A stretch of DNA of 42,507 bases from the sequence record MN850583.1. One strand, 5' to 3'. Shown piece after piece: positions 1,602 to 42,507 of the stretch. The first letter of the stretch is position 1. Every line of letters begins with the position of its first letter. The translations under genes were made by a program, and so were the position numbers. Source of the stretch: Escherichia phage glasur. The notes under the pieces are model-generated. The model did not search any database. It worked only from the letters and a program-made list of their open reading frames with translations, and was not told where the DNA came from.

Positions 1602-2129
1602 ATGACTACTGTTAAATATACTGCATTCAAAGATGCTGCGGCGCTGGACAAAGCTATCGAAGCGACTGTCAAAAAGGCGCACTCACTCCGTAACGATATT
1701 CAGAACGTTGCGGTCGGTATTATCCTGCACGCTTACCATCACGGCGACTACACTCGTGCTGAGTCGTTCACTCACCAACTGGGTGATGGCGTCCGTGGTA
1801 AGGCGCTGGTTGACTGGTTCGTCCAGTTCGGCGGCCTGATTGTGGGTGAGCATGAAGATGGCAAATCCGGCTTCGTTGGCTGGAAGGGTGCCGACTTCAT
1901 CAAAGAGAACATCGACAAGGCGAAAGCCACGATGTGGTGGACTTGCAAGCCAGAAGCGGCCTTTGATGGCTTCGACCTGCAAGATGCGCTCGAAAAGCTG
2001 ATTGCCAAAGCTGAAAAGGCAATGAACAAGGCGAACGAGCTGCGCCACGAAGGGCGCGATGAGGATGCGAACAAGGTTGTCGTGCCTCAGAACGTGCTGG
2101 ACGGCCTGCGCAAGCTGAAAGCTGCGTAA
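1602..2129 (+). CDS. Early protein of unknown function (175 aa)
   Basis: ORF track. GAGGTG about 7 nt upstream of the ATG. Confidence 0.75.
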   Translation: MTTVKYTAFKDAAALDKAIEATVKKAHSLRNDIQNVAVGIILHAYHHGDYTRAESFTHQLGDGVRGKALVDWFVQFGGLIVGEHEDGKSGFVGWKGADFIKENIDKAKATMWWTCKPEAAFDGFDLQDALEKLIAKAEKAMNKANELRHEGRDEDANKVVVPQNVLDGLRKLKAA

Positions 2130-2142
2130 GCGGGATTGACTC

Positions 2143-2179
2143 AAGCCATCTTGCGAGGTGGCTTTATGGCAATTCTGCC
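2143..2179 (+). promoter_or_regulatory. Leader element: hairpin (loop TCTTGCGAGG) followed by GGCAATTCTGCC (copy 1 of 4)
   Basis: Stem AAGCCA/TGGCTT, then GGCA-N4-TGCC at 2168-2179. The same two-part element precedes the genes at 2561, 2965 and 3584. Confidence 0.5.
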
Positions 2180-2202
2180 CCAACAATTACGGAGTATCAT
2201 CC

Positions 2203-2487
2203 ATGACCACTAAAACTGTTCTGGCCTACGTCACCAAGAAAGGCGAAGAAGTGTACGGCTATGCTGTGTCTATCGACGGCGGCCAAAACTACCTGCATCA
2301 CGTTCGTGAAGAAGGTGAACCGACCGACCATGATGGCATTCTGGAAACGCTGAAAGGCATTCCGCTGCCGCACGAAATCATCTGTATGCTGGCTGGCCAG
2401 ACGGAAGATGACCTGCAACTGCGTCACGGCGATGACCTGACCATTCAGGGTATCGGCAGCTTCGAAGCTGACGTAGACGACGAATAA
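2203..2487 (+). CDS. Small acidic protein (94 aa), member 1 of the tandem acidic array (C-terminal SFEAD motif)
   Basis: Internal ATG of track ORF 2158..2487 chosen because GGAG lies 8 nt upstream. Acidic composition; ends GIGSFEADVDDE. Confidence 0.65.
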   Translation: MTTKTVLAYVTKKGEEVYGYAVSIDGGQNYLHHVREEGEPTDHDGILETLKGIPLPHEIICMLAGQTEDDLQLRHGDDLTIQGIGSFEADVDDE

Positions 2488-3892: not shown

Positions 3893-4001
3893 TGAGCGCC
3901 ATCGAGGTGGCACTGATGTTGGGCTGTCATGCAGGTATTGGCAGCCTCGTCATCTACATCGTTGGCGCGGCACGCAAATCATACGATAGGAGAACCAAGC
4001 T

Positions 4002-4178
4002 ATGAAACTTGCAGTATCGCGCAGCGGTGCAAGCCATGCGGCACACAAGTTGCACTTCCTGTTCCACTCGCTGTACCTTACAGCGGCTGCGATGGAGGGT
4101 CACTTGTTCTACAGCCTCATGGCTGGCGGCACCTTACTGTTCATGGTTGGCACGGCGGTGCTGGGCAATGAACATTAA
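4002..4178 (+). CDS. Possible small membrane protein (58 aa)
   Basis: ATG with strong AGGAGA 8 nt upstream and a hydrophobic C-terminal half. Alternative overlapping frames (3892..4005, 3929..4171, 4201..4341) cannot be excluded. Confidence 0.35.
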   Translation: MKLAVSRSGASHAAHKLHFLFHSLYLTAAAMEGHLFYSLMAGGTLLFMVGTAVLGNEH

Positions 4179-4405
4179 TCTGTTACAACGGGTCAAGGGT
4201 ATGGAGCGTCGGCACTGGGAGACGGCCATCATCCTTAAGGTAAGCATAAGCGCTGGACTTGCTGCTGCTTATTTCCTGCCAACCACCGCAGCAATAGCCG
4301 TTGGTATCAGCACCAACCTGCTATGGTTGTGGAAGTTGTAAGCAGTGGATTACTCAAGGCTGTCCAGCGGGTAACCTTTTTGAAATCCATTGACGAGAGG
4401 GGAGC

Positions 4406-4744
4406 ATGGCACTACATCGAGTGAAGGTAATGCGTGGGCCTGACTTCGAAGACGGACAAGAGATTGCTGCATTGCAGTACCGCTTGCCGTCAGGTCAGGA
4501 GGGGCTGGTCATCATCGACCAGATTGAAATCATGGGTGAGCACATGCTGATTGCTGATGCCACCGATGAGCAAATCATTGAGCGCTGCAAGGCATACGCC
4601 GGGGGCAGACCGTTCATCATCGACCTGATGAATGACCAGCACATCAATGCTGATGGTTCGCTGCTGTTCAAGGCGTGGCTTCATGCTCTCACAACAATCT
4701 ACGAAGGGGAGATGTATCTCTTTGGAGTAGGCACCGAGGGTTAA
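4406..4744 (+). CDS. Early protein of unknown function (112 aa)
   Basis: ORF track. Strong GAGAGGGGAG ribosome-binding site. Confidence 0.75.
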   Translation: MALHRVKVMRGPDFEDGQEIAALQYRLPSGQEGLVIIDQIEIMGEHMLIADATDEQIIERCKAYAGGRPFIIDLMNDQHINADGSLLFKAWLHALTTIYEGEMYLFGVGTEG

Positions 4745-4746
4745 TC

Positions 4747-5061
4747 ATGAAAGTAAGCAAAGGATATCTGTTCGTGCTGTTGATGCTGGCTACCCTGTAT
4801 CTCAGCACATGCCACATCGCACTGGCTGCTGATGTGGAGAAGGTGCATTTGGATGCGTATGACGTACCGCTGGGCGCACCTGATGGACAGGTGTACTCTG
4901 CTTGCGTCATTGACCTACGCAAAGGTGGCACTGTCAGCACACTGGCCTACGTTGGTGAGTGTGAGGATGTGCTGCCACACCTGAAAGAAAAGCTGGAGCA
5001 TGATGGCGTGACCACCATCGTGACTCTCTCAATCAACGGTCATAACATCAACCTAACGTGA
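4747..5061 (+). CDS. Predicted secreted small protein (104 aa) with N-terminal signal peptide
   Basis: ATG at 4747 with GAGGG upstream. N-terminus MKVSKGYLFVLLMLATLYLSTCHIALA-ADV has a hydrophobic core and an A-x-A cleavage site. Confidence 0.6.
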   Translation: MKVSKGYLFVLLMLATLYLSTCHIALAADVEKVHLDAYDVPLGAPDGQVYSACVIDLRKGGTVSTLAYVGECEDVLPHLKEKLEHDGVTTIVTLSINGHNINLT

Positions 5062-5970: not shown

Positions 5971-6264
5971 ATGAGCAGAAGTGCTAAGTGGGATGCGCTG
6001 GTACAGTGGGTGAAGGATAGCTTTGGGCCACCGCCTACCCCTGACCACGATGACTCGCCGTTCCAATACGTCGAGAAGAAAACGCAGGAGCTTAAGCTGG
6101 GCGACTACGTTGTAGCATACGGTGGATACATCCAGCGCATCGGTGCCGTTGAGTATGATGGCAGCCGACTGGTTGTAACCAAGCTGGGGCATAGCCCTGA
6201 ACGTGAATGGCAGGCGTTTGAAGACGACGAGTTCACAATCCGCACACTGAAAGAAGGAAAGTAA
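5971..6264 (+). CDS. Early protein of unknown function (97 aa)
   Basis: ATG at 5971 with GAGAGG upstream, inside track ORF 5890..6264. Confidence 0.65.
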   Translation: MSRSAKWDALVQWVKDSFGPPPTPDHDDSPFQYVEKKTQELKLGDYVVAYGGYIQRIGAVEYDGSRLVVTKLGHSPEREWQAFEDDEFTIRTLKEGK

Positions 6265-6266
6265 TC

Positions 6267-6782
6267 ATGGCTATTGACTTTAAATTATTCAACGCCGAGC
6301 AACTTGAAACTGTCAAGTCTCTGGCTGAGTTCATCGACAACCACCCGGAGCTGAGCGAACTGGTTGAGTTCAAGGGTGGCTACCTGCCGAAGCAAAGTTA
6401 CATCGGCGCGGTGCGTAAAGGTCGTGAAGGTATGCTGGATATTATTCCGCAGACCAGAACCGGGGCGCTGCTGGCACGCAACGTCAGCGTGCTGATTGGC
6501 ATGAACGTGAAGCGTGCCAGTGAGCAGGGCAATGCGGCTGAGGTTGAGACGCTGCGCCTGACGGGTACGCTCGCAGCTAAGGCCATGTCGGAACCGGACA
6601 TTGCCGAGCGCTATCACGACTGGTACATGGCGTGCGCTAATGTGCCAAGCGATATCAGTGAGACGACGCTGGGCCTGCTGTTCGTCGGTGAGTTCATCGA
6701 CGCAACCATCCGTGCAGTCAGCGGTCAGGTGGGTGAATTAATTCAGGCAATGCAGCAGGCCAAGAATGCAACCCGTCACTAA
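6267..6782 (+). CDS. Protein of unknown function (171 aa), last gene of the early module
   Basis: ORF track. AGGAA ribosome-binding site. Confidence 0.75.
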   Translation: MAIDFKLFNAEQLETVKSLAEFIDNHPELSELVEFKGGYLPKQSYIGAVRKGREGMLDIIPQTRTGALLARNVSVLIGMNVKRASEQGNAAEVETLRLTGTLAAKAMSEPDIAERYHDWYMACANVPSDISETTLGLLFVGEFIDATIRAVSGQVGELIQAMQQAKNATRH

Positions 6783-7642: not shown

Positions 7643-8349
7643 TGAAATCAGTGAGCAACGACGAGTGGCCGGAGCTGGCGAAGCGTCTGCCTGTAGGACA
7701 AAAGCGAAGGACGTTTCACAGTTGCTCGCGGTCATTCAACAAGACCAACTTCGAGTATGGCCGTGCGCCGGATTACATCTGGTGCAAGTGCCACCGCTGT
7801 GGGTACAGCCAGAAGCGTGACCTGACTCACGCTGTGTATGTGCCGCCAGCCGAGGTGCAGGTGAAGGTGCCGACTGATGTGGTGCCTATCACTGAGGTGA
7901 TTGCCAAGCAACCACGGCTGCTGCTGCCAGTGCTGGAGCGGGAGAACCTGATGCCACACCTGTCACTCCTGACTGCAAGCCCAACGTATGGCAGGCTGTA
8001 TCTGCCGGACGACACGGGCAGCTACTGTGGTCTGGACTACACGGGCAGGCAGTTCATCCCGTGGCGCTCGCCGCATAAGCATAGCTTGGCGATGAAGGTC
8101 AGTCCTCGTGGTGACGCGGAGACTAACTGCCTCTGGATTTATGGTGAGGTGGATGAGTATCTCCAGCAGGTGCGCGATGGTGGCAACTGTGCATTCGTTC
8201 CGAACGTGGATGATGCAACGTTGCAGGCTCTGGTCAGTGTGACGCTGGCGTATGGGTACAACCTCGTGGTCATCTGCCACCACCCAAGCGCCCAACGTAT
8301 CCGCAGGGAGCTGCGTATTGTGGGGCGTGTGCAAATCGTAGGAGAGTGA
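7639..8349 (+). CDS. Putative DNA primase (Cys-rich N-terminal zinc-binding region)
   Basis: Cysteine cluster HSCSRS...CKCHRC near the N-terminus and position immediately upstream of the helicase gene, as in phiKMV-like phages with separate primase and helicase. Assignment is mainly by position. Confidence 0.45.
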   Translation: MMKSVSNDEWPELAKRLPVGQKRRTFHSCSRSFNKTNFEYGRAPDYIWCKCHRCGYSQKRDLTHAVYVPPAEVQVKVPTDVVPITEVIAKQPRLLLPVLERENLMPHLSLLTASPTYGRLYLPDDTGSYCGLDYTGRQFIPWRSPHKHSLAMKVSPRGDAETNCLWIYGEVDEYLQQVRDGGNCAFVPNVDDATLQALVSVTLAYGYNLVVICHHPSAQRIRRELRIVGRVQIVGE

Positions 8350-8350
8350 T

Positions 8351-9616
8351 GTGCTTGACAAGCTGTTGTTAACGGTGATGCGCGAGCGCGGGAAGTTCAA
8401 CTCCCTGCGACACGCCATCCCGGAAGATACGATGAGCCAGACCACGAGCTATATGCTCAAGGCTTACGGCTCATACTTTGATGCGTTCCCGGACAGTGAC
8501 TACATTGACATTGACACGCTGGGTACACACGTTCGTTTAAAGACAGGCAGCACGCCTGAACAGATGGCAGCCTTTGATTCGTTGTGCTCGCAGCTTCGAG
8601 AGTACAAGCCAACGAAGGAACAGAAGGAAGGTGTGCTTGACCAGCTCGTCGAGTTGGATACCGCTGGCCGTGCTAACCTGCTAATGCAGAGGTACGACAA
8701 TGGTGAGGAACTGGATATTATCTATGAGCTGGGCCGTCTTGCTGAGGGCGCACGTCGCAGCCGGGGGCAGTCATCTGTCACTGATTACGTGGACGATGAT
8801 GTGGTTGATATTCTCAACCGGACGGATGATAATCACGGCCTCAAGTTCGGTCTGCTCTGCTTGCAAGACAGCGTTCGCGTACTTCTACCCGGCGACTCCG
8901 TTGCCATCGGTGCTCGACCTGACAGCGGAAAGACTTCCTTCATCGCGTTTAACCTTACGCGAATGGCGGCGACAGCAGCGAAGCTCTATCCGGGCAGGCC
9001 AATCCTCTGGTTCAACAACGAGGGGCAGGGCATCAACATCATCCCGCGCATCTACCAAGCGGCGCTCAACTGCACGCTCCCGGAACTGAAAGAGCTGGGA
9101 GAGGACAGGGCTAAGCTGCACGCTGCGTATGCCAAAGCGCTGGGTGCGCCAGCCAACATCATCCGTGTGAAGGATATGCACGGCGCGTCGCTGGCGAAAG
9201 CTGAGCAGGTTATCGAAGCGATGAACCCATGCGTTGTGGTGTGGGATATGTTGGCGAACTTCAAGCTGTCTGTCTCCGATGCCAACAGCAACAAGGCGTC
9301 GCAGGTTGAGCAGCTATGGCAGGAGGTACGTGAGCTGGCCGTGCGCCACGACTTCGTATCAATGGCCACGGTGCAGGTATCAGCCGATGGCAAGGATGAT
9401 ATGTTCCCTGCGCTGGATGCACTCAAGGATTCCAAGACTGGTATCCAAGGTGCGACTGATGTTATCGTCATGCTCGGCAGCGTGGATGACCCATCGCTGG
9501 CAGCGCGGCGCGGCGTCAGCACTCCGAAGAACAAACGCCAGATTGCTGGGCGTCCATCCAACGTGCGGTCGCAGGTTCACTTCTTTGCTGACCGCTGCCA
9601 ATTTGAGGATATGTAA
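8351..9616 (+). CDS. DnaB-like replicative DNA helicase (T7 gp4 helicase-domain type)
   Basis: Walker A GARPDSGKTSF and Walker-B-like VVVWDM; 421 aa. GTG start with GGAGAG upstream. Confidence 0.75.
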   Translation: MLDKLLLTVMRERGKFNSLRHAIPEDTMSQTTSYMLKAYGSYFDAFPDSDYIDIDTLGTHVRLKTGSTPEQMAAFDSLCSQLREYKPTKEQKEGVLDQLVELDTAGRANLLMQRYDNGEELDIIYELGRLAEGARRSRGQSSVTDYVDDDVVDILNRTDDNHGLKFGLLCLQDSVRVLLPGDSVAIGARPDSGKTSFIAFNLTRMAATAAKLYPGRPILWFNNEGQGINIIPRIYQAALNCTLPELKELGEDRAKLHAAYAKALGAPANIIRVKDMHGASLAKAEQVIEAMNPCVVVWDMLANFKLSVSDANSNKASQVEQLWQEVRELAVRHDFVSMATVQVSADGKDDMFPALDALKDSKTGIQGATDVIVMLGSVDDPSLAARRGVSTPKNKRQIAGRPSNVRSQVHFFADRCQFEDM

Positions 9617-24631: not shown

Positions 24632-25624
24632 ATGGCCGACAACTACTATCAGCCGAATCAGTTCCGTCCACACTGGGGTGGTGCGAACTCTGATAACGAC
24701 ATTCACCTTGAGGTGTATGACCGTGATGTGCAGACCCAGTTCATCTACAACTCCATCTTCCGCAGCGGCCTGACCAACTTCAAGTCTGTTGCGAACCAGT
24801 CCAACACTTGGCGTGGCGACCGTCTCGGCTCCGTGTCTGTGAAGGGCCGTAAGTCTGGTCAGTCTCTGGACAACCAGCCTGTTCGCTCTGAGAAGCTGAT
24901 TGTCACTGTGGATACCGTGTCTTACATCCGTATCCCGATTGACTATCAGGACGACTGGACTGCGCCGGACTTCCGTGCTGAGCTGACCCGTAACATGGGT
25001 ACTGCACAGGCGAAAGCGTTCGACCAAGCGCACGTCATCCAGCTCCAGAAGTCTGCTGACTTCGTTCCTCCGACCTCTCTGGCAGGCGCGTTCAACTCCG
25101 GTATCAAGGAGAAAGTAACGCTGACTGGCACCGTGGCTTCTGAGGAAGACGATGCAAGCGCACTGGTGCATGGTCACAAGAAAGTCATTGAGGCGTTCAT
25201 TCGCCGCGATGCCGACCTTGGCCGTCTGGTAACGCTGATTGACCCGGCGTGGTTCAGCATCCTGCTGGAGCACAAGAAACTGATGAACGTTGAGTTCACT
25301 GGTGGTCGTGGTGTGAACGACTTCGCTATGCGTCGTGTTGCTTACGTGAACGGTATCCGTATCATCGAGAGCAACGCATTCCCGCAGGCAGCAATCACCA
25401 ACCACATCCTCGGTGCCGACTTCAACGTCACCGCCGAAGAAATCAAGCGTAAGATGATTATCTTCGACCCGTCTCTGGCTCTGGTCACTGTCGAAGCCCA
25501 ACCGCTGTTCAACCGCGTGTGGGATGACGAACGTGAACTGACCAACGTTCTGGACAGCTTCCACATGTACACCGTGGGTCAGCGTCGTCCTGACGTGGTA
25601 GGCGTGGTTACTACCGAAGCCTAA
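24632..25624 (+). CDS. Major capsid protein (T7 gp10-like)
   Basis: 330 aa, strong ribosome-binding site, canonical position, and followed by a hairpin as in T7-like phages. Confidence 0.85.
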   Translation: MADNYYQPNQFRPHWGGANSDNDIHLEVYDRDVQTQFIYNSIFRSGLTNFKSVANQSNTWRGDRLGSVSVKGRKSGQSLDNQPVRSEKLIVTVDTVSYIRIPIDYQDDWTAPDFRAELTRNMGTAQAKAFDQAHVIQLQKSADFVPPTSLAGAFNSGIKEKVTLTGTVASEEDDASALVHGHKKVIEAFIRRDADLGRLVTLIDPAWFSILLEHKKLMNVEFTGGRGVNDFAMRRVAYVNGIRIIESNAFPQAAITNHILGADFNVTAEEIKRKMIIFDPSLALVTVEAQPLFNRVWDDERELTNVLDSFHMYTVGQRRPDVVGVVTTEA

Positions 25625-35100: not shown

Positions 35101-35213
35101 AGCAGGCAGTGTCCGGCGCTCGTAAAACGGCAGGTAACATCATCCAAGCTATCCCACTCATCTCAATCGTGCCGGGCGTCCGAGCACTCAACGAAGCAGT
35201 TAAGGGTGAATAA
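32106..35213 (+). CDS. Large internal virion (core/ejection) protein, T7 gp16-like
   Basis: 1035 aa, position and size. I could not confirm a lytic transglycosylase motif by eye. Confidence 0.7.
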   Translation: MITQESLDKFMAPKQGANAPTLVIPAPVKAETLSTPLQDATRQGAVEQFDKMQELEATPIATALSASVKNWDTTQLFDAAFNKPVFQADPDFHPNEALQNVQFPVTEDDRTFLFKSKSMDEFNWRTQQLQEMRERTQLAHTAPVMNAVLQFADPLYLATDLLSMGAGTALKLGRLGTAAVGAASTAATMTAVGNEARPVSQNEIIFAAALHGAATTAFYRPAAAPARRLDELSPEEFAAEMQRRNGIDPNNPPQFDPNNAMSPLAMSLGFGRRGAMETDEVPESIRAAAQRGLDLARRGEQTNPKRPFLEWSLFKSFSQHSDEASALAGRLLDDPLNPNMTSAAAIQRETQARFGVLLNQYEDTLRHALTTDGWSNIRRFRDPVGYRRAQQEFEAAVRLELDKRMIDNNFRGANPNVANAADRLGEYSRAVGRELERKGMVEPGFVEKNPYYYPRRMNVTKVEQAEQLLGKKPFMKQMTTAVQRGIGTDRPTANVIAHAMVERARRKGYGIDNSGMIINKEGRDELLEIIENSKGLDEAAKARASALLRESGSDAGRPSMLKSRINIDMMHQLGPNLQVRDLFDDSITSMMDAYNRRITGRLALHEAGLGTDAERAAAREALAKSIKDGMARRQALEQYDNIMAYYQGSPVGEEMPQFMRQLSALTQATGLAASGLWQLVEYGTMMQRFGAVNTFRAMMRTIPEARALFKQMRVTTKEGRQLALDAEEALTAAVASDIRMRPIMQHYEDMFSADKSPWVMRLEHARDATMFINMQKYIHFHQTRTNAALVMQTLRKAAEGDAKAIAAMKTYGANDALLADIRKQVGTHGTKPDAWDEGVFNRSRIVMMNAMDDAIVRARVGELPAFAEFSTLGKFLFTFRRFVAATHNKTLVGTWNREGARGMATLMAYQYPLAMMATAANNVISGKAFSDPETMAPNKLAGQALNYLGAIGFASEFTGVLTGQQRSFGAPGLLFLDRAYGVAGAATSAAGGVLTGDTEQAVSGARKTAGNIIQAIPLISIVPGVRALNEAVKGE

Positions 35214-37585
35214 TGGCGAACAGCTACAACACTTACGTGGCGAACGGCTCGCAGACCGCGTTCCTCGTTACGTTTGAGCAGCGCGTGTTCACACAGATTC
35301 AGGTGTACCTCAACTCCGAACTCCAGACGAGCGGGTACACCTACAACTCTGTGACCAAACAGATTGTCTTTGACACCGCCCCGCTCGCCGGGGTGATTGT
35401 CCGTTTGCAACGCTATACCTCTGAGACTCTGCTGAACAAGTTCGGACAGGACGCTGCCTTTACAGGCAGCAACCTCGACGAGAACTTCGAGCAGATTCTG
35501 TTCAAGGCTGAGGAAACTCAGGAAGCATGGCTCGCGCCGCTTGACCGCGCCGTCCGTGTCCCGAACTCCGAAGTCTCCATCAACGCATTACCGAACGTCG
35601 CTGGCCGCCGCAACAAGGCACTGGGCTTTGACAGCAATGGCCAGCCGTTCATGATTCCTCTGGTTGATATCCCTGACTCCGCGCTGGCTATCGCACTTGC
35701 GATGAATGACGGCGGTAAGTGGATTGGTACACTGGGCGGCGGCACGTTCCTCGACCGTCAGGATACCGTGTGCCTGTCAGAGTTCACCAACAACACCGGG
35801 TACGCCTCTATCGCCGCTGCGGTACAAGCGTGCTTTGATTATGCCAAGGCTAACCACAAGACTGTGGATGCCCGTGGCTGGGTCGGTACTGTCAACTCCA
35901 CTGTCCTGATGGACGGCATTGAGGTTGTCGGCGGCACTTGGAACGGTACGGCTGATATCCGACTGCTGGACTCCACGTTCCGCGACTTCAAAGCCTCGAC
36001 TGTCCGTGTCTGCTACTGGGGTGGTAAGGTTCGCATCTCTGATTATGAGTTCACTGGTGCGCCATCGAACTCCAAAGTAGCGAGCATTCTGTTCCAAGGC
36101 AACATCGCCGGGGGCAGCTATGTCATTGAGAACGGTATCCACCGCAATGGCAAGTTCGGTATTCTCCAGCAGGGTACTGGTGAGGCTATCGAGAACGGCG
36201 TTATCCGCAACATCGCTATGATGAATATGCTGGGTGACGGCATTGAGATGAACGTAATCAACAAGCACTATGATGGTGGCCTGCTGATTGAGAACATCTA
36301 CCTCGAAGACCTCGACGGTACGACTGCGCCTATCCCCCTGTCCAACTGGGGTATCGGCATCGGTATTGCTGGCCAAGGCCCGTTCGGTTGGGATGCTGCT
36401 GAAACGCAGTACGCCAAGAACGTGGTCGTCCGTAACGTCCATGCTCCGCGTGGCGTGCGTCAGGTTGTCCACTTCGAAGTTACCCGCGATAGCGTGTGTG
36501 AGAACGTGTTCTGTAACCCTGACCTCGCTGTGTCCACTGGTACTGGCCTAACGGCGGCAGGTGTAATCACCTACGGCTGTAAGCGCATGACCATTGACGG
36601 CGTGGCTGGTGAGCCAATCAACACTGGCGCAACCTCCCCTAACGCGATTCGTCTCGTTATGTTGGAGTGGGGTGCGAACCAAGCAGGTGCAGGCGGCACG
36701 CCGGGCGCGGCATGTCCTTCGTTTGATATGACTGTGCGTAACGTGCAGACCCGTACCGGACGCTTCTACGCTGGTGTTGGCTCCGACGACACGAACAACA
36801 ACACGTATCATCTGGAAAACATCCACTGCCATACGATGAGTCTGTTCGGCGTGGCGACGCTGCTGAATATGACAAACGTGACTGGGGTGGTGTTCGATGC
36901 TGTAGGCGATGACTCCAGCGGCGGCACCCCATCCAATGGTCTGTACCCGCGTAAGAAGACTGTTCTCAACATGGTGAACGTGAACTTCTACGGGCCGGGC
37001 ATGACTGAGGGTGCGCTGTACAGTAAGGCTCGCTACTCGGATATCAGCACGCTGAACTCCAACGTGCGTGCTATCCCGTACACCAACATCCAAGGTAACG
37101 TAGGCGTCGTCCTGTCTCCGGTCAACCGCATGTACACGCTGCCGAATAACCTTGCAACCTTGACTGGTGGGGAGTTCCCGACTGGTAAAGAGTTCTGCGA
37201 GGGGACGGTGCTGTTTAAGACTGACGGCTCTGGTGGCAACTTCATCGTGACTGGCTTCGGTGCGTATATCCCGGATGACGGGAACAACTTCAAGGTACGT
37301 GCTGCTGCCGCTGGCCAGACGTATCTTGAGCAGAACCTGACTCCGGCTGGTACTCAGGCTTCCACCTCGTGGTTGTACCATAAGCCTATCTCGGCTGGTA
37401 CTCGTCTACAGGTGCCGGGCGCTGGTGCTGGCGGTGCAACACTGACGGTTACGGTGGTTCGTGCGCCTTATCAGGTGGACAACAACATCGGGAACCCGGT
37501 ACGCATCGACATTACCCCGGCGCTCGTGACGGCTATCCCTGCTGGGACTCAGCTCGCCGCGACGTACCCGGTCACTTACATCTAA
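35213..37585 (+). CDS. Tail fibre/tailspike with T7 gp17-like N-terminal anchor and probable beta-helix receptor-binding or depolymerase domain
   Basis: N-terminus MANSYNTYVANGSQTAFLVTFEQ... resembles the conserved tail-attachment domain. Central region has G/N/I-rich repeats typical of right-handed beta-helices. Confidence 0.75.
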   Translation: MANSYNTYVANGSQTAFLVTFEQRVFTQIQVYLNSELQTSGYTYNSVTKQIVFDTAPLAGVIVRLQRYTSETLLNKFGQDAAFTGSNLDENFEQILFKAEETQEAWLAPLDRAVRVPNSEVSINALPNVAGRRNKALGFDSNGQPFMIPLVDIPDSALAIALAMNDGGKWIGTLGGGTFLDRQDTVCLSEFTNNTGYASIAAAVQACFDYAKANHKTVDARGWVGTVNSTVLMDGIEVVGGTWNGTADIRLLDSTFRDFKASTVRVCYWGGKVRISDYEFTGAPSNSKVASILFQGNIAGGSYVIENGIHRNGKFGILQQGTGEAIENGVIRNIAMMNMLGDGIEMNVINKHYDGGLLIENIYLEDLDGTTAPIPLSNWGIGIGIAGQGPFGWDAAETQYAKNVVVRNVHAPRGVRQVVHFEVTRDSVCENVFCNPDLAVSTGTGLTAAGVITYGCKRMTIDGVAGEPINTGATSPNAIRLVMLEWGANQAGAGGTPGAACPSFDMTVRNVQTRTGRFYAGVGSDDTNNNTYHLENIHCHTMSLFGVATLLNMTNVTGVVFDAVGDDSSGGTPSNGLYPRKKTVLNMVNVNFYGPGMTEGALYSKARYSDISTLNSNVRAIPYTNIQGNVGVVLSPVNRMYTLPNNLATLTGGEFPTGKEFCEGTVLFKTDGSGGNFIVTGFGAYIPDDGNNFKVRAAAAGQTYLEQNLTPAGTQASTSWLYHKPISAGTRLQVPGAGAGGATLTVTVVRAPYQVDNNIGNPVRIDITPALVTAIPAGTQLAATYPVTYI

Positions 37586-37594
37586 GGAGAAACC

Positions 37595-37900
37595 ATGGCA
37601 TCCGTGAACAAGCAGCTCGATGGGCTGCACCGGATGCTGGTGGAGTATCTGTCCGACCGCTTGGCCGACGCCCGTAGAAAAGATGAGAACGGTAATATCA
37701 TCGAACCTATGGCGGCGGCTGAGCTGTCCGTGCTTCGCCAGTTCCTGAAAGACAACGGCATTCAGGCTGATAAAGACCACGCTGACGACCTGCTCGCGCT
37801 GCAAGAACAGCTCAACAACGAGAAGACCGAGGCTGGCCGCAAGGATATCATGACTGCTGCCATCAACTCAATCGCAGAAGATAGCGGGATGATGCACTAA
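37595..37900 (+). CDS. Terminase small subunit (T7 gp18-like)
   Basis: 101 aa helical protein immediately upstream of the large terminase, overlapping it by TAATG. Confidence 0.55.
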   Translation: MASVNKQLDGLHRMLVEYLSDRLADARRKDENGNIIEPMAAAELSVLRQFLKDNGIQADKDHADDLLALQEQLNNEKTEAGRKDIMTAAINSIAEDSGMMH

Positions 37901-39660
37901 TGGATTTACAACGCCGCATGGTGATGGCAGGAATCGTTCGCGCTCACTACGAGAACAACTTCCCGCTGTTCCTGCACGACTACTTCGCATGGCTGGGCTT
38001 TGACCTCACTGAAATGCAGCTCGACATTGGCCGCTACATGGCCGACCGGACGCTCAAGAACAAGTGCGTCATGGCGCAGCGCGGTGAGGCTAAGTCCACC
38101 ATCGGCATTGCTCGCGCTCTGTACGAATTTGTGCAGATGCCGAACGCTACTGTCCTGCTCGTATCCGGTTCCGACGACTATGCTGGTACGCTGTCGCACG
38201 CTATCGTGTCGGCTATCATGCAATGGGACAGGTTGGAATGGTTACGCCCGGAGACTCGCGCTGGCGCACGTACATCGTACACCGATGGCTTCGACGTGCA
38301 TCACGCATTCCGTATCCCTGATAAACAGCCCTCTGTAAAAGCGGTCGGTATCTTCGGCCAGTTGCAGGGGAACCACGTATCGCTGTTGATTGCCGATGAC
38401 GTGGAGACTACCAGTAACGGTAGCTCTCCTGCCAACCGCGCCCGTATCAATACCCTGACCAAAGAGTTCGCGGCTATCGCCAATGACGGTGCAGAGATTC
38501 TGTACCTCGGTACACCGCAGACTCAAGACTCCATCTATAACACGCTCCCGCAGCGTGGCTTTGATGTTCGCATCTGGCCCGGTCGTTTCCCAACGGTTGA
38601 GGAAGAAGAACGCTACGGAGGCTGTCTGGCCCCGTGGATTAAGCAGAAGATGGAGGGCCACCCGGAACTTCGCACAGGTTATGGTATCCTTGGGAACCGT
38701 GGTGCGCAGACCGACCCGCAACGCTACTCCGAAGAAAAGCAGTTGCAGAACGAACGAGACTACCAGCAGGCAGGCTTCCAGTTGCAGTTCATGCTGGACA
38801 CTTCTCTGTCGGATGCTCTCAAACAGACCTTGCATCTCAAGGACTTAATCTTCTTCCACGGCTCGCCTATCTCCGCGCCGGAAGTCTTGCATTGGTCGAA
38901 TCACCCACGGCACGCCGCCGAGCTGCCACTGGATTTCCCACTCGCTCGTGCGCAGCTATTCTTGGCTGCTGATTTCTCGGACACTTATGTACCATTCGAA
39001 AATGCCTCGGCGTTTCTTGACCCTGCTGGTGGTGGGTCGGATGAATCAGTTATCATCGTCACCGCTTCTATCGGCCCGTTTATCCACGTCCTTGGTATGC
39101 ACGTCTACCACGGCGGCCAGACGGAGGAAAACATCCAGACGGCGGTGTCGTGGCTAGGTGAGCTGGGCTGCAAACGTCTCGTCATTGAGGACAACATGGG
39201 CCACGGCACCGTGACCAACATGTACCGAGGTGAGATTAAGCGGCAGAAGCTGACCATGGGCTGCGAGGGTGTGTACTCGTCCGGCCAGAAAGAGGTGCGT
39301 ATCATCAACCGCCTCGGCCCAATCATGCAGCGCCACCGTGTGGTTGTCCACTGGAGCGTTGTTGAAGAAGACCTGCGGTTATGCCGGGGTATGGCCAACG
39401 GTGGTCGTGAGTACAGCCTGTTCTGGCAGCTCCAGAACCTGACTCAAGACCGTCAATCCATCCCGCATGATGACCGAATTGAAACCTTAGCCGCTGCCGT
39501 GTACCTCCACGCCGAGGTGTTGCAGCAAGACGAAAACGAAGAAGCGGAGCGCCGTGCAGTCGCTGTGGCCAAAGAGTTCATCGCCAACCCTATGGGGTAT
39601 GATGACCCGAAATGGCGCAGCCACAAGCCTGTACGCGGTACGCGACGGAGAATTAGATAA
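37900..39660 (+). CDS. Terminase large subunit (T7 gp19-like)
   Basis: 586 aa, the same length I recall for T7 gp19. Walker-B-like LLIADDVETT; canonical position. Confidence 0.85.
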   Translation: MDLQRRMVMAGIVRAHYENNFPLFLHDYFAWLGFDLTEMQLDIGRYMADRTLKNKCVMAQRGEAKSTIGIARALYEFVQMPNATVLLVSGSDDYAGTLSHAIVSAIMQWDRLEWLRPETRAGARTSYTDGFDVHHAFRIPDKQPSVKAVGIFGQLQGNHVSLLIADDVETTSNGSSPANRARINTLTKEFAAIANDGAEILYLGTPQTQDSIYNTLPQRGFDVRIWPGRFPTVEEEERYGGCLAPWIKQKMEGHPELRTGYGILGNRGAQTDPQRYSEEKQLQNERDYQQAGFQLQFMLDTSLSDALKQTLHLKDLIFFHGSPISAPEVLHWSNHPRHAAELPLDFPLARAQLFLAADFSDTYVPFENASAFLDPAGGGSDESVIIVTASIGPFIHVLGMHVYHGGQTEENIQTAVSWLGELGCKRLVIEDNMGHGTVTNMYRGEIKRQKLTMGCEGVYSSGQKEVRIINRLGPIMQRHRVVVHWSVVEEDLRLCRGMANGGREYSLFWQLQNLTQDRQSIPHDDRIETLAAAVYLHAEVLQQDENEEAERRAVAVAKEFIANPMGYDDPKWRSHKPVRGTRRRIR

Positions 39661-40331
39661 TGTCCCTGATTACCATCACCGATGCTCAGCGTTACGATAT
39701 CGGTTATCGCTGCAACATCGCAGCAAACCTCACCCAGCGGTTCGTGAATGATACCCGGACGGTGACGGCAGCTCAGGCTGCTGCTATTGATACAGCCATC
39801 GAGAACCTCATGACGGCGTTGGAAGCCGCAGGCTATAGTTCCGTACCGGATGGGTCTGCCATCGTCGCAGACGGCGCTGCAATCAACGTGGTGAACTTCA
39901 ATGGTACGGTCACTAAGGCTGGTACTGTTGACGTTACTGACGGTGTTGCTTCGGTCAACTTCCCTGTCACCATCGGTATGAAAGCCAATGGCGAAACTAT
40001 CTCTGTTCAGAACGTGTCCGGTGCCAATGGCATTGGCTCCACTGCATTCGTTGACTCCAACGGTGTGCTGCTGGCTGCCCGGCTCCCGGCTACCGCCGCC
40101 ACGCTCCAGAACAACGCTACGATTCAGATTCGCAACTCTGCGGGTACTGCTATCGGCAACGCCACCTTCAACGTGGCCTCTGGTGCCATCACCTACGGTT
40201 CGCTTCCGGCTACCATTGCTGGCGTAACCAACGGTCAGGCACTCACTGGTGTTGCGCCGACTGGCACGTACACCAACACTGTAACCTTCACTGTAGCTGG
40301 CGGCGTCATCACAGCTATCACATTGTCTTAA
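39660..40331 (+). CDS. Thr/Gly/Ala/Asn-rich beta-type protein of unknown function (223 aa); possible accessory fibre or adhesin-like virion protein
   Basis: ORF track. Imperfect internal repeats (NGTVTKAGTVDVTDGVASVNF, IGNATFNVASGAITYGSL, TGTYTNTVTFTVAGGVITAITLS). Unusual placement between terminase and lysis genes. Confidence 0.6.
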   Translation: MSLITITDAQRYDIGYRCNIAANLTQRFVNDTRTVTAAQAAAIDTAIENLMTALEAAGYSSVPDGSAIVADGAAINVVNFNGTVTKAGTVDVTDGVASVNFPVTIGMKANGETISVQNVSGANGIGSTAFVDSNGVLLAARLPATAATLQNNATIQIRNSAGTAIGNATFNVASGAITYGSLPATIAGVTNGQALTGVAPTGTYTNTVTFTVAGGVITAITLS

Positions 40332-40342
40332 TAGGAGTTCTT

Positions 40343-40528
40343 ATGGCCTTATCTGCATCTACCGCAGCCGAACGCGCCGAGTTCGTGGCAGCCTGTAATA
40401 TGGCAGCCAAGTACCTGAACGTTTGGGTTGAGGACGGTTACTTCGACACGACCAACACTGCTCTGATTGCCTACTATCAGACCTTCGTTACCCGTGTCTC
40501 TAACGCCCTTACTGCGCTGACGAACTAA
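40343..40528 (+). CDS. Small protein of unknown function (61 aa)
   Basis: ORF track. AGGAG ribosome-binding site. Confidence 0.6.
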   Translation: MALSASTAAERAEFVAACNMAAKYLNVWVEDGYFDTTNTALIAYYQTFVTRVSNALTALTN

Positions 40529-40539
40529 CGGAGTAACAT

Positions 40540-41028
40540 ATGAAACTGTCTCGGCTTATGGCCGGGGCAGTCTTGTCTCTGTCCTTGACATTGACGGGCT
40601 GCTCCGCAACAAGCGCACTGTCTGCTGTAACCTCGGCTGTCTCTCCCAATAAGCCGGAACTAACGGCACAGGTTGGCGCAGAGAACACGAAACAAGGCAT
40701 CGGCTTGACTGCGAAACAGTCCGACGAAACGAAGGTCGGTGACGTATCTGGTAACGCGCAAGTGGATACCGCTAAACAGGGTAGTGATTCGACGACTGTG
40801 AAGGACGTCACAGGAGGCTCTGTAAACGCTTCTAAGCAGGGGTCGCAAATGACCCAAGGGAACGTACAGGCTAAAACTGTTGTCATCTCACAGAGCGACC
40901 CACGCAGCCTCCTATGGGCTTTCGGCATGGGTCTGACCTGTATCTTAGGCTTGGTAATGTGGTTTGTACCATCTCCGTGGAAAAAGAAGGTGAAAGATGA
41001 CGGAAGCAAAGAAGGAGCCAGCTCCTAA
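40540..41028 (+). CDS. Putative unimolecular spanin (N-terminal lipoprotein signal plus C-terminal transmembrane helix)
   Basis: Lipobox LTLTGC at the N-terminus, Thr/Ser/Lys-rich periplasmic region, C-terminal helix LLWAFGMGLTCILGLVMWFV followed by basic PWKKKVKD. Adjacent to the endolysin gene. Confidence 0.5.
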   Translation: MKLSRLMAGAVLSLSLTLTGCSATSALSAVTSAVSPNKPELTAQVGAENTKQGIGLTAKQSDETKVGDVSGNAQVDTAKQGSDSTTVKDVTGGSVNASKQGSQMTQGNVQAKTVVISQSDPRSLLWAFGMGLTCILGLVMWFVPSPWKKKVKDDGSKEGASS

Positions 41029-41380
41029 CATCCACTCGCGTATGGGCGCTGTGGAGGCTCGTATGCAATCCGTAGAAACTCGCCTCGACAAACACGAGAT
41101 TCAAATTGCCAACCTTGAGAAAGGTGACGCTGCTATGCTGGCCAAGCTATCGGAGAACGACTCCCGGTGGCTGGAGATTCAGCAGCAGCTCCGTGTCGTC
41201 GAGCAAATTCAGGACATTCAAAAGACTATGAGCCACATTGGTAAGCTGTTTACTTACGCGGCTCACGCCGTCAAGTGGTGTCTCCTGACCGCTTCACTCG
41301 TTAGCGGTATCTATCTTGCGGTCAAGGCTGGCGACCTCACGGCGCTCCAGTCCTTTATCACAACGATTATGGGGATGTAA
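40997..41380 (+). CDS. Holin-like or lysis-regulator membrane protein (127 aa; coiled coil plus C-terminal transmembrane helix)
   Basis: ORF track. AAGAAGG ribosome-binding site; hydrophobic WCLLTASLVSGIYLAVKAG near the C-terminus. Assignment mainly from position immediately upstream of the endolysin. Confidence 0.35.
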   Translation: MTEAKKEPAPNIHSRMGAVEARMQSVETRLDKHEIQIANLEKGDAAMLAKLSENDSRWLEIQQQLRVVEQIQDIQKTMSHIGKLFTYAAHAVKWCLLTASLVSGIYLAVKAGDLTALQSFITTIMGM

Positions 41381-41916
41381 TGACTAACTTTGAAATCTGT
41401 ATGAAGTTCACCGGGCTGGCCGAGGGTGGGTACACCAAGCTGCCCGGTGACACTGGAGGGGAAACCAACCATGGAATTAGTGACGCTCGTGATGGGAAGC
41501 TGGATGGCAGAGCTTGTGGTGTCCCTACTGGGCTTGGCGGCACTGTGTGCGTGCCTATTAAACAGCTCACCAAAGAGCAAGCCGAAGCAATCTATCGCCG
41601 GGACTACTACAGCCCCATCAGAGGTGACGAGCTTCACCCTGCGATTGCATGTGCCGTGTTTGACTACGGCGTCAACTCCGGCGTCTCCCGTGCTGCTAAG
41701 GCTCTACAGCGGGTATGCGGGGTTGCACAAGACGGGGTTATCGGCCCTGCTACCGTGGCAGCAGCCAAACGTCTGGAACCTCACTCCGCAGCAGCATCCA
41801 TCTGTGACCTTCGTATTGCGTTCCTAGAGGCTTCTACGGCCACGACAGTGGTTCGCTATAGGGATGCCTTGGTTGCTCGTGCAAAACGCTGTAGCGCTTA
41901 CTGTGCGACGCTGTAG
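41380..41916 (+). CDS. Endolysin: GH108-type N-acetylmuramidase with C-terminal peptidoglycan-binding domain
   Basis: N-terminal signature FTGLAEGGYTKLPGDTGGETNHGI (the EGGY...D.GG.T.HGI family motif) and C-terminal AKALQRVCGVAQDGVIGPATVAAAKRL typical of peptidoglycan-binding repeats. No signal anchor. Confidence 0.8.
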   Translation: MTNFEICMKFTGLAEGGYTKLPGDTGGETNHGISDARDGKLDGRACGVPTGLGGTVCVPIKQLTKEQAEAIYRRDYYSPIRGDELHPAIACAVFDYGVNSGVSRAAKALQRVCGVAQDGVIGPATVAAAKRLEPHSAAASICDLRIAFLEASTATTVVRYRDALVARAKRCSAYCATL

Positions 41917-41999
41917 GGGTATCCGAAAGCTGACACAATGAACAGGCCGTGGGTGCAATACCCCGGCTTGAAAATTGAACGTTTATGCGTGGGCCTCCC

Positions 42000-42507
42000 T
42001 CGACCCAAATGACCGCGCGTACCCCCATGACGTGTGCGCGGATTAGCCTCGCGACGTGCGCGATATTGCTCGCGTGCGCTGCGCGGCGCGTCAAGAGGAT
42101 TGCCTGCGTGCGGTATAGCTCGTGCGTGTCGCGTTTCATCGTCTGCCGTGTGGCGTGCTGTGCGCTGTCCTGCTGGCTGTGCTGTGCGGTGCTGTCCTAT
42201 GGGGACGCTCTGCGCTGGCTGTGCTGTGCTGTGTGCTGCGCTCGGTCGTGCGGGTATCTGTCTCTTTTCGTCGTGCGCCGTGGTGCTGTGTGGTGGTGTG
42301 GTGTAGCGGTGGTGCTGCCGTGGTGCTGTCCTGTCTGCTGGTCTACTGTCTGCGCCGCCAGCTCTGCGCGTCATGCTCTGCTACTGTGTCACCTGTCCTA
42401 CTGCGTTCACTGGCTGCCGCCTGTCATCCTGTCGGATTCCATCCGTTGCCGTTCCGCGCTCGCTTGTTTCGGCTGCGCCGCGCTCGCTCTGCGTATCTAG
42501 CGATACA
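42000..42507. repeat. GC-rich, strongly strand-skewed (A-depleted) right terminal region with short degenerate GTGCTGT/GCTGTCC repeats
   Basis: About 6 A residues in roughly 230 nt (42130-42360) on the + strand. Recurring GGCTGTGCTGTGC and GTGCTGTCC units. Only Cys/Arg-rich ORFs with no ribosome-binding site. Confidence 0.6.
42255..42270 (+). promoter_or_regulatory. Candidate T7-RNAP class II pause/termination (concatemer-junction-like) motif TATCTGTCTCTTTTCG
   Basis: Resembles the T7 class II signal ATCTGTT followed by a U-rich tract, with one mismatch. In T7 this signal lies in the terminal repeat. Confidence 0.35.

Follow-up and report, generated by a model that had tools for sequence, protein, structure and literature searches.

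Two genes between the large terminase and the lysis cassette of Escherichia phage glasur probably encode a capsid decoration pair of the alpha-claw/alpha-paw kind

Introduction

The capsid of Pectobacterium phage PhiM1 is decorated by alpha-claw (gp44) and alpha-paw (gp43), with five claw chains to two paw chains in the asymmetric unit and alpha-paw placed as a homodimer at the quasi-2-fold capsid axes (PMC11440229). The contact with the major capsid protein (MCP) involves Arg and Asn20 of the paw and Asp21 and Asp86 of the MCP, and the forearm of gp43 was not resolved in structure 8vb0 (PMC11440229).

Small proteins similar to gp44 (8vb0 chain H) occur in HRP29 (Gp48, 8eld chain H) and 23sf (gp5); the HRP29 details are taken from PDB chain names and citations in PMC11440229. 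All three are two-helix hairpins of approximately 60 aa, and their genes adjoin a larger decoration gene. The concept of a capsid anchor with an outward accessory module is also shared by the phi29 gp8.5 head fibre, T4 Hoc, T5 pb10, and N4 gp17. These modules are often dispensable and thought to be weakly adhesive, whereas their folds are unrelated to that of the paw.

The window analyzed here is a stretch of 42,507 nucleotides from Escherichia phage glasur, a Bonnellvirus-like autographivirus. An initial annotation, based on the letters alone, drew attention to two open reading frames between the large terminase (TerL) and the lysis genes and proposed a second receptor-binding protein, a decoration protein or a late accessory function. 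In this work, both products were compared with known capsid decoration systems.

Results

The gene pair lies at a conserved location flanked by TerL and the lysis cassette

The ORFs of 223 and 61 codons were both found on the + strand where the initial annotation had placed them (Table 1). In the ORF reading, the ATG of the 223-aa gene overlaps the TerL stop as TAATG, and the gene is translationally coupled to TerL and not to the lysis genes. The 61-aa gene is preceded by AGGAG 8 nt upstream of its start. In the region 37000-42507, promoter-like sites were not enriched (3 found vs 3.0 +/- 1.8 expected from shuffles), terminator-like sites numbered 7 vs 3.4 +/- 1.8 in shuffles, and no terminator-like site flanked the two genes. 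A direct repeat shared by the two ends of the window was looked for and not found.

Table 1. Features of the glasur window discussed in the text.
Feature	Coordinates	Strand	Evidence
Major capsid protein (MCP), presumed partner of both decoration proteins	24632..25624	+	homology to decorated capsids
Large terminase (TerL), upstream neighbour	37900..39660	+	PF22530 1.5e-23; phrog_17672/phrog_38
Gene of the probable paw-type capsid decoration protein (223 aa)	39660..40331	+	ORF; homology
Claw motif of the 223-aa protein (aa 1-61), predicted dimerisation and capsid-clipping domain	39660..39842	+	helix-turn-helix
Forearm (aa 62-223)	39843..40328	+	four ~40-aa beta repeats, the last ending in the conserved cap
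Forearm repeat R1 (aa 62-101)	39843-39962	+	
Forearm repeat R2 (aa 102-141)	39963-40082	+	
Forearm repeat R3 (aa 142-181)	40083-40202	+	
Forearm repeat R4 with conserved C-terminal cap (aa 182-223)	40203-40328	+	
Mosaic cassette in the forearm (aa ~74-200)	39879..40259	+	blastn breakpoints vs relatives
Gene of the probable claw-only decoration protein (61 aa)	40343..40528	+	ORF; paralogue of the paw N-terminus
Lysis cassette, downstream neighbour	40540..41916	+	PHROG and Pfam matches
Spanin-like lipoprotein	40540-41028	+	phrog_1804 Rz-like spanin 9.5e-37
Holin candidate	40997-41380	+	
GH108 endolysin	41380-41916	+	PF05838 6.8e-22

At the protein level, both ORFs are conserved in approximately 20 related phage genomes, and the order TerL, paw-claw pair, spanin, holin, and endolysin was also found in J8-65, forsur, LIMEzero, PhiM1, and IME308. 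Synteny comparison demonstrated that phages of Bonnellvirus, Waewaevirus, Phimunavirus, and Drulisvirus regularly carry a paw-claw pair in the TerL-to-lysis slot. As a conserved feature of several genera, the pair is not an insertion, and the description of the 223-aa protein as an 'extra' one had to be abandoned. Its location between TerL and the lysis cassette was correctly noticed, but only a comparison with T7 and phiKMV themselves makes it unusual. In the main text of the virion proteomics report on fHe-Kpn01, the gene of the Drulisvirus homologue was not identified.

The 223-aa protein is homologous to PhiM1 alpha-paw

Homology to PhiM1 gp43 extends over the full length of the 223-aa protein. 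It matched gp43 (8vb0_J) in phmmer (E 8.7e-21), and the profile of its family aligned with both domains of the same chain with E 1.3e-54; phrog_9732 was also matched (E 1.5e-59). The AF2 model opens with two helices (residues 8-31 and 37-56) and continues with repeated beta strands, and its best PDB fold matches in Foldseek were 8vb0_N/J/K/H with TM(target) of 0.72-0.76 and rmsd of 1.6-2.1 A. The profile of the paw N-termini reached 8eld_H (5.8e-7), 23sf_G (1.8e-6), and the alpha-claw chain 8vb0_H (4.7e-6), and the paw N-termini, HRP29 Gp48, 23sf gp5, and PhiM1 gp44 form one claw superfamily. Pfam searches with both the 223-aa and the 61-aa proteins returned only sub-threshold noise (DUF7706, OrfB_IS605, DUF1015). 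Matches of the paw profile to NDM-1 beta-lactamase (E 7e-4 to 0.1) involved the low-complexity linker and the first repeat and were rejected, being unsupported by the fold search.

The 223-aa protein and PhiM1 gp43 share the N-terminal claw, forearm repeats of approximately 40 aa and a near-identical cap, and both are encoded between TerL and a spanin gene in phages with homologous MCPs. They differ in the number of repeats and length (three and 179 aa in PhiM1 gp43, four and 223 aa in glasur), in the claw, which is only ~41% identical with Arg15 not in register, and in the gene order, which is paw-claw in glasur and claw-paw in PhiM1.

The glasur MCP resembled those of the decorated capsids in phmmer searches: 8eld_A (HRP29 Gp37) at 1.1e-92, 23sf_I at 2.1e-90, and 8vb0_A (PhiM1 gp38) at 1e-82, with 45% identity to the latter. 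The PhiM1 contact residues are conserved only in part. Among those of the MCP, Asp21 is conserved in glasur, Asp86 aligns with Glu and Val22 with Asn. On the side of the paw, Arg15 of PhiM1 aligned with Gly15, with Arg17 nearby, and Asn20 with Ile20, with Asn19 adjacent, in an alignment that is uncertain at 30-40% identity.

The second protein consists of the claw alone and is paralogous to the paw N-terminus

Comprising only a claw, the 61-aa protein is paralogous to the N-terminus of the paw and probably belongs to the superfamily of PhiM1 gp44, HRP29 Gp48, and 23sf gp5. It aligned with paw residues 1-61 in BLASTP (E 1e-4, 32% identity), and in hhalign its family matched the paw claw domains with a probability of 97.9% (E 4.5e-13) and PhiM1 gp44 together with the Drulisvirus claw with a probability of 63% (E 6.8e-5). 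Direct phmmer searches of the PDB with the 61-aa sequence gave no match, and its profile matched the solved claw chains weakly (E 0.049 to 8eld_H and 0.14 to 8vb0_J). The link to the solved claws is mainly transitive, via the paw claw domain, which reaches 8eld_H, 23sf_G, and 8vb0_H at <=5e-6. Two bridging sequences (P0078 and P0079) have a claw of the 61-aa type fused to the forearm cap.

AF2 predicted a two-helix hairpin (helices 8-29 and 39-60, pLDDT 82.5), for which the top three Foldseek matches among 350,542 PDB chains were 8vb0_N, 8eld_H, and 8vb0_J with TM of 0.72-0.80; the fold is a simple one, matched with poor E-values (0.27-0.43) despite high ranks and probabilities. The loop between the helices is longer than in the paw. 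The N-terminal motif M-[AS]-[LIV]-x-x-x-T-x-A-[EQ]-[RQ] is common to the 61-aa protein, HRP29 Gp48, the paw N-termini, and the small protein of IME308, a close homologue of 23sf gp5, whereas PhiM1 gp44 matches it only partially. Matches of the 61-aa profile to retroviral RNase H (E ~0.1) were short and compositional and were discarded.

The forearm consists of beta repeats closed by a conserved cap

The Thr/Gly/Ala/Asn-rich composition and the imperfect internal repeats reported for the 223-aa protein were both borne out. The residue counts are A 38, T 32, G 23, V 22, N 19, and I 18 of 223, and four units of approximately 40 aa were delimited. The best ungapped self-diagonal scored 80 at offset 40 (z = 7.1) against 35.9 +/- 6.2, maximum 61, in 500 composition-preserving shuffles. 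The four repeats could be aligned with the three repeats of PhiM1 gp43. Each contains three beta strands in the AF2 model. The fibre is probably dimeric, which limits the value of this monomer model (pTM 0.43).

The cap, ending in ...PTGTYTNTVTFTVAGGVITAITLS, is nearly invariant among 25 diverse homologues; the last 42 aa are 81% identical to PhiM1, whereas the claw reaches 41% and the MCP 45%. Weak hints to a virion function came from phrog_10405 ('virion structural protein'), which matched aa 180-223, and from a BFVD fold match to a 'putative structural protein' of phage LKA1.

The Ig-like or beta-sandwich fold suggested initially was not seen: the model combines a helix-turn-helix with three-strand beta repeats, no Ig-type domain was found in Pfam, and searches of PDB and BFVD returned no match to Ig-like/beta-sandwich decorations (Hoc, pb10, N4 gp17) and nothing significant among known fibre folds.

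The forearm repeats form a sharply bounded mosaic cassette

Comparison of phages with otherwise near-identical genomes revealed that the central part of the forearm is swapped or deleted as a cassette with sharp boundaries and flanks of ~90-100% identity. In blastn alignments with forsur, RZ4, ROV85, and HHU8, the left break fell at 39800-39880 (39800 in HHU8) and the right one at 40260, the flanks were 87-96% identical, and the identity per 100 nt dropped from 99-100 to 47-55 at the cassette. TerL of glasur and forsur is 100% identical, but the forearm core only 33%; for J8-65 the corresponding values are 90% and 66%. The forearm is lost in ROV85, leaving claw plus cap, and truncated in HHU8. 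The rapid exchange and natural loss indicate that the forearm is accessory and not essential. In unrelated phages, forearm-bearing homologues adjoin capsid genes, and their forearms stand behind different N-terminal domains.

Discussion

Altogether, these results suggest, with a probability of roughly 85%, that both genes encode a capsid decoration protein pair of the alpha-claw/alpha-paw kind. The decoration protein alternative of the initial annotation is thereby favored by the paw homology and by the probable place of the 61-aa protein in the claw family of capsid clips. Judged by homology, the two proteins would be placed on the glasur capsid, each by a helix-turn-helix clip of ~57 residues. 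The 61-aa protein would be the bare clip and probably the cementing component present in abundance. In the 223-aa protein, the same clip would be extended by a flexible, outward-pointing forearm fibre that is closed by the conserved cap. Dimerisation, site preference, and a 5:2 claw:paw stoichiometry like those of PhiM1 are to be expected in glasur, and the decoration proteins presumably have a stabilising role. As cryo-EM of a related phage has already revealed both counterparts, the pair is largely explained; modestly new is the organization of the forearm repeats as a sharply bounded mosaic cassette.

The proposal of a second, tail-associated receptor-binding fibre, with the 61-aa protein as its adaptor or chaperone, could draw on the repeat-rich beta composition, on the exchange of the central cassette between near-identical genomes, as seen with receptor-binding domains, on the tailspike gene a few genes downstream in PhiM1 and Drulisvirus, and on very weak BFVD fold matches to fibre proteins (probability <=0.4). 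We consider it improbable, since the solved homologue is on the capsid and not on the tail, the N-terminus of the 223-aa protein is a capsid-clipping claw, and ROV85 and HHU8 are viable with the repeat region lost or truncated. Moreover, the protein has no Pfam or PHROG tail match and lacks the T7-fibre N-terminal adaptor; PF03906 is found instead on the 790-aa tailspike (35213-37585). Even less credible are accessory functions in lysis, such as an antiholin or regulator. The genes of the spanin, holin candidate, and endolysin directly follow the pair, but neither of the two products showed an apparent transmembrane segment or signal sequence on sequence reading or a lysis-family match in Pfam and PHROG, the homologues are structurally placed in the virion, and the coupling of the 223-aa gene is to TerL.

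On a decorated capsid, the forearm may have a passive role instead of being an adhesin, as a spacer or as a shield, for example against aggregation or antibodies, or it may be an unselected extension, its variability reflecting relaxed constraint. The loss in ROV85 and truncation in HHU8 would fit, as would the hydrophilic, uncharged surface of the PhiM1 forearm, which is devoid of an obvious binding interface (PMC11440229), and the absence of a match to any known binding fold in PDB and BFVD. This explanation seems rather unlikely in view of the extreme conservation of the cap across distant phages, the maintenance of the repeats in frame in dozens of lineages, and the replacement by a distinct allele rather than decay, which argues for selection. 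An adhesive role of the forearm is possible, and weak adhesion to host or environmental surfaces may be put forward as a speculation. A further idea, tentative and less likely than not, is that of a horizontally mobile, length-adjustable head-fibre cassette, captured by unrelated phages and acting as a general Hoc-like capsid-surface adhesin or environment sensor. The conserved linker and cap would flank a variable repeat core that recombination swaps, expands or deletes, even between phages with identical terminases. Such a cassette would have entered head modules of the podo-, sipho-, and myovirus types, where it would follow no fewer than four or five different N-terminal anchor domains, and would evolve like a receptor-binding domain, though mounted on the head.

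The assignment of glasur proteins to the claw/paw kind allows approximately 20 pairs of 'hypothetical proteins' in Bonnellvirus and Waewaevirus to be annotated as capsid decoration proteins, together with their counterparts in Drulisvirus, a genus of Klebsiella phages including candidates proposed for phage therapy. The PhiM1 system is widespread and not a curiosity, and the paw forearm behaves as a modular hot-spot whose repeats vary in number, are exchanged, and can be lost. Glasur, forsur, and the forearm-less ROV85 represent natural matched alleles on near-isogenic backbones and hence a ready experimental handle on the role of fibrous head decorations. For capsid display, too, the claw anchor and its exchangeable C-terminal module could plausibly serve as a scaffold.

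HRP29 Gp47 and 23sf gp6 (124 aa) correspond to the 223-aa protein in being the larger partner of a small claw protein on a homologous T=7 capsid, but they are not detectably homologous to it and have no forearm repeats. The small claw protein of Drulisvirus weakly matched the C-terminal part of both (E 0.14-0.17).

Gene Organization around the Paw and Claw Genes

Both open reading frames (ORFs) reported downstream of TerL in the initial annotation were confirmed, each on the + strand. Escherichia phage glasur is a Bonnellvirus-like member of the Autographiviridae, with Escherichia phages forsur, usur and J8-65, Cronobacter phage RZ4, Pantoea phage ROV85 and Kosakonia phage Kc261 as the nearest deposited relatives. 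The genes run in the order tailspike, TerS, TerL, 223-aa protein (paw), 61-aa protein (claw), spanin-like protein, 127-aa membrane protein and endolysin. An identical arrangement, both small genes included, was found in J8-65, forsur, LIMEzero (Waewaevirus) and Klebsiella phage IME308 (Drulisvirus), whereas PhiM1 (Phimunavirus) carries both genes in reversed order. The occurrence of the pair at the same locus across several genera indicates a conserved feature and not, as the initial annotation had it, an extra insertion in glasur.

Features of the window and of the compared records
Record	Feature	Coordinates	Strand	Remarks
Window	Major capsid protein (MCP)	24632-25624		
Window	Tailspike	35213-37585		T7-fibre N-terminal domain PF03906
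Window	TerS			Between tailspike and TerL
Window	TerL	37900-39660		Directly upstream of the 223-aa gene
Window	Paw gene, 223 aa	39660-40331	+	ORF; ATG overlaps TerL stop codon (TAATG)
Window	Mosaic cassette	39879-40259		Paw aa ~74-200
Window	Claw-only gene, 61 aa	40343-40528	+	ORF; AGGAG 8 nt upstream
Window	Spanin-like lipoprotein, 162 aa	40540-41028		phrog_1804 'Rz-like spanin' match
Window	127-aa membrane protein, probable holin	40997-41380		Position, hydrophobic segment
Window	GH108 endolysin	41380-41916		
Window	Right end	42000-42507		G+T-rich
L003 (ROV85)	Minimal paw gene	4261-4569		
L004 (PhiM1)	gp43 and gp44, translated	3987-4725		
L012 (HHU8)	Shortened paw gene	2069-2404		
L008	Forearm gene	6001-6663		Podovirus-like contig, P22-type portal; short distance downstream of capsid gene
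L010	Forearm gene	4190-4792		Siphovirus-like contig; two genes after Gp13-like capsid gene
L011	Forearm gene	8001-8963		Pelagibacterium prophage; cement and major capsid genes follow shortly downstream

Homology to the Alpha-Paw and Alpha-Claw Decoration Proteins

The alpha-claw/alpha-paw system was reportedly first seen in phage HRP29 in 2023. In Pectobacterium phage PhiM1, for which it was described in 2024, cryo-EM revealed two decoration proteins, the ~6 kDa helix-turn-helix protein gp44 ('alpha-claw') and gp43 ('alpha-paw'), in which the gp44 motif is followed by a long C-terminal 'forearm'; the asymmetric unit holds five claw and two paw chains, and the forearm, too flexible for modelling, was proposed by the authors to act in adhesion (PMC11440229).

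Ala, Thr, Gly, Val, Asn and Ile are abundant in the 223-aa protein, which contains four imperfect repeats of ~40 aa (aa 62-101, 102-141, 142-181 and 182-223). The internal repetition noticed at the outset was borne out by the self-diagonal score, which peaked at 80 at offset 40 versus 35.9 +/- 6.2 in 500 shuffles (maximum 61; z = 7.1). The Pfam search of this protein found no family, and PHROGs placed it in function-unknown families, its last ~44 residues matching a 'virion structural protein' family. The sole relevant entry in the PDB sequence search was chain J of the PhiM1 capsid 8vb0, 'Alpha-paw decoration protein (gp43)', with E 8.7e-21 for the single sequence and E 1.3e-54 for a profile built from 25 family members, N- and C-terminal parts both being aligned. 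The AF2 model (pLDDT 78, pTM 0.43) is composed of helices 8-31 and 37-56, a helix-turn-helix, followed by repeated three-strand units, and its top PDB fold matches were the PhiM1 decoration chains 8vb0_N/J/K/H (TM(target) 0.72-0.76, rmsd 1.6-2.1 A) and not the Ig-like folds that the initial annotation had proposed to look for. Homology over both parts, the N-terminal claw motif and the C-terminal forearm of an alpha-paw were all present in the 223-aa protein, with the capsid-contact positions conserved in part.

The direct PDB sequence search with the 61-aa protein gave no match. Its sequence is paralogous to residues 1-61 of the larger protein (BLASTP E 1e-4, 32% identity), and its family profile hit HRP29 Gp48 (8eld_H, 60 aa) at the top with a marginal E of 0.049 and residues 1-57 of PhiM1 gp43 weakly (E 0.14). 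In profile-profile comparisons, the 61-aa family matched the paw claw domains with a probability of 97.9% (E 4.5e-13, 61 columns) and PhiM1 gp44 together with the Drulisvirus small protein, itself closely homologous to 23sf gp5 and HRP29 Gp48, with a probability of 63% (E 6.8e-5). The AF2 model is a two-helix hairpin (pLDDT 82.5), for which the best three among 350,542 PDB chains were 8vb0_N, 8eld_H and 8vb0_J (TM 0.72-0.80). The profile of paw N-termini matched HRP29 Gp48 (5.8e-7), the 23sf 'decoration protein gp5' (1.8e-6) and PhiM1 alpha-claw gp44 (4.7e-6), so a single claw superfamily is indicated. Direct similarity of the 61-aa protein to the solved members is marginal, and the transitive evidence and the predicted structure strongly argue for its placement in the claw family.

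The exhaustive profile search for relatives of the 61-aa protein yielded just eight representatives. In two of the eight, the metagenomic proteins P0078 (103 aa) and P0079 (116 aa), the 61-aa-type claw is fused directly to the forearm cap; as judged from sequence, they bridge the claw and paw families directly. Both claw paralogue types therefore appear to occur with or without the fibre.

The Probable Capsid Partner

The window MCP is strongly homologous to the MCPs of the three decorated capsids (8eld_A, 1.1e-92; 23sf_I, 2.1e-90; 8vb0_A, 1e-82). At the published PhiM1 contact positions it retains Asp21, with Glu aligned to Asp86 and Asn to Val22, and the decoration-side positions are partially conserved in the window proteins. 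A sentence in the PhiM1 paper locates Arg18 in the paw and Arg15 in the claw (PMC11440229). The translated PhiM1 sequences have Arg15 in gp43 (paw) and Arg18 in gp44 (claw), hence the two labels appear to be swapped. PDB entry 23sf (chains A, G and I) is a solved capsid with MCP gp17, close to the window MCP, and its decoration proteins are gp5 (60 aa, a Drulisvirus-type claw) and gp6 (124 aa).

Repeat Number and Mosaicism of the Forearm

The paw homologues differ mainly in repeat number. The shortest, from ROV85 (102 aa), is a natural minimal paw of claw, linker and cap, with all internal repeats cleanly deleted at the breakpoints of the mosaic cassette. In the LIMEzero protein (150 aa), the forearm is shorter and its C-terminal end divergent. 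Three repeats occur in PhiM1 (179 aa), and the IME308 protein (180 aa) falls with this three-repeat group in the alignment. Four repeats are present in glasur and J8-65 (223 aa) and in forsur and RZ4 (226 aa), and metagenomic relatives reach 320 aa. The C-terminal cap (...PTGTYTNTVTFTVAGGVITAITLS) is nearly invariant, its last 42 residues being 81% identical to PhiM1 as against 41% for the claw and 45% for the MCP.

Window and forsur DNA share 96% identity over TerS and TerL and 92% to the right of 40260, but the cassette between them is unalignable, identity per 100 nt dropping to 47-55. RZ4, ROV85 and HHU8 share the right breakpoint, and their left breakpoints lie at most 80 nt apart; in all four genomes, forsur included (counterparts in records L002, L003, L012 and L013), the flanking sequence matches the window at 87-100% identity and the core is unalignable. 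Window TerL is 100% identical to forsur and 90% to J8-65, the forearm core 33% and 66%, and the claw protein 84% and 52%, respectively, values that read as clear phylogenetic incongruence. On these alignments, the repeat core is best described as a recombination cassette bordered by the conserved linker and cap. In HHU8, the shortened paw gene has an in-frame stop at codon 55, and the record splits it into two small ORFs. Loss of gene function, an error in sequencing and read-through of the stop are all possible explanations. Since ROV85 and HHU8 were both isolated as plaque-forming phages, laboratory growth does not require the forearm.

Among 65 forearm-bearing proteins recovered in the survey, about 27 have a claw-type N-terminus, and the remainder show at least three or four further kinds of N-terminal domain, or lack one altogether. 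All three non-claw homologues placed on contigs (L008, L010 and L011) lie within head-morphogenesis modules. These contexts support a general association of the forearm with the head and suggest a mobile module joined to lineage-specific capsid anchors.

Proposed Role of the Two Proteins

We consider it highly probable (about 0.85) that both proteins are late-expressed capsid decorations whose claws dimerise and hold adjoining capsomers together. The analysis itself demonstrates the homology of both proteins and of the MCP, the predicted folds, the conserved gene order, the repeat units and the mosaic cassette. We infer that on the glasur capsid the claw motifs would dimerise and join adjacent capsomers. 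The 61-aa protein would be the stabilising cement, probably at most of the 2-fold sites, and the 223-aa protein would probably take a subset of sites, with a corresponding stoichiometry, and project as a dimeric beta-repeat fibre.

The decoration protein was one option of the initial annotation, and the homology to PhiM1 alpha-paw, the 8vb0 fold matches and the homologous MCP show it to be the right one. Its option of a second receptor-binding protein, taken as attached to the tail, is now very improbable: the solved homologue sits on the capsid, the 223-aa protein is without a tail-adaptor domain, and forearm-less relatives are viable. An accessory role in lysis is still more remote, as neither protein bears a signature of membrane insertion or lysis and the 223-aa gene is coupled to TerL. 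That the forearm is adhesive is speculative; a decoration protein whose forearm is not adhesive, a reading that is possible but less likely than not, is compatible with the main identification and concerns forearm function only.

The gene pair belongs to the alpha-claw/alpha-paw system and is largely explained by the published structure. The extra repeat and variable repeat number, the sharply bounded exchange or deletion of the cassette and the forearm in unrelated head modules go slightly beyond the published accounts consulted.

Lysis Genes and the Right End

In the 162-aa protein, a lipoprotein signal (LTLTGC lipobox) lies at the N-terminus and a transmembrane segment at the C-terminus, an organisation like that of a unimolecular spanin and not of an Rz/Rz1 pair. 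The 127-aa ORF overlaps its gene by 32 nt and encodes a coiled-coil N-terminus (weak XhlA-like match, E 0.002) followed by one hydrophobic stretch towards the C-terminus. This ORF belongs to phrog_35530, a function-unknown family, and its position corresponds to that of the PhiM1 holin, hence it probably encodes an uncharacterised kind of holin. At the right end, A is strongly depleted (AT skew -0.5 to -0.8, GC 0.62-0.65), which gives rise on either strand to long but spurious ORFs rich in Cys and Ala. No second copy of this sequence was found at the left end of the window, and its position matches that of the annotated terminal repeat of J8-65.
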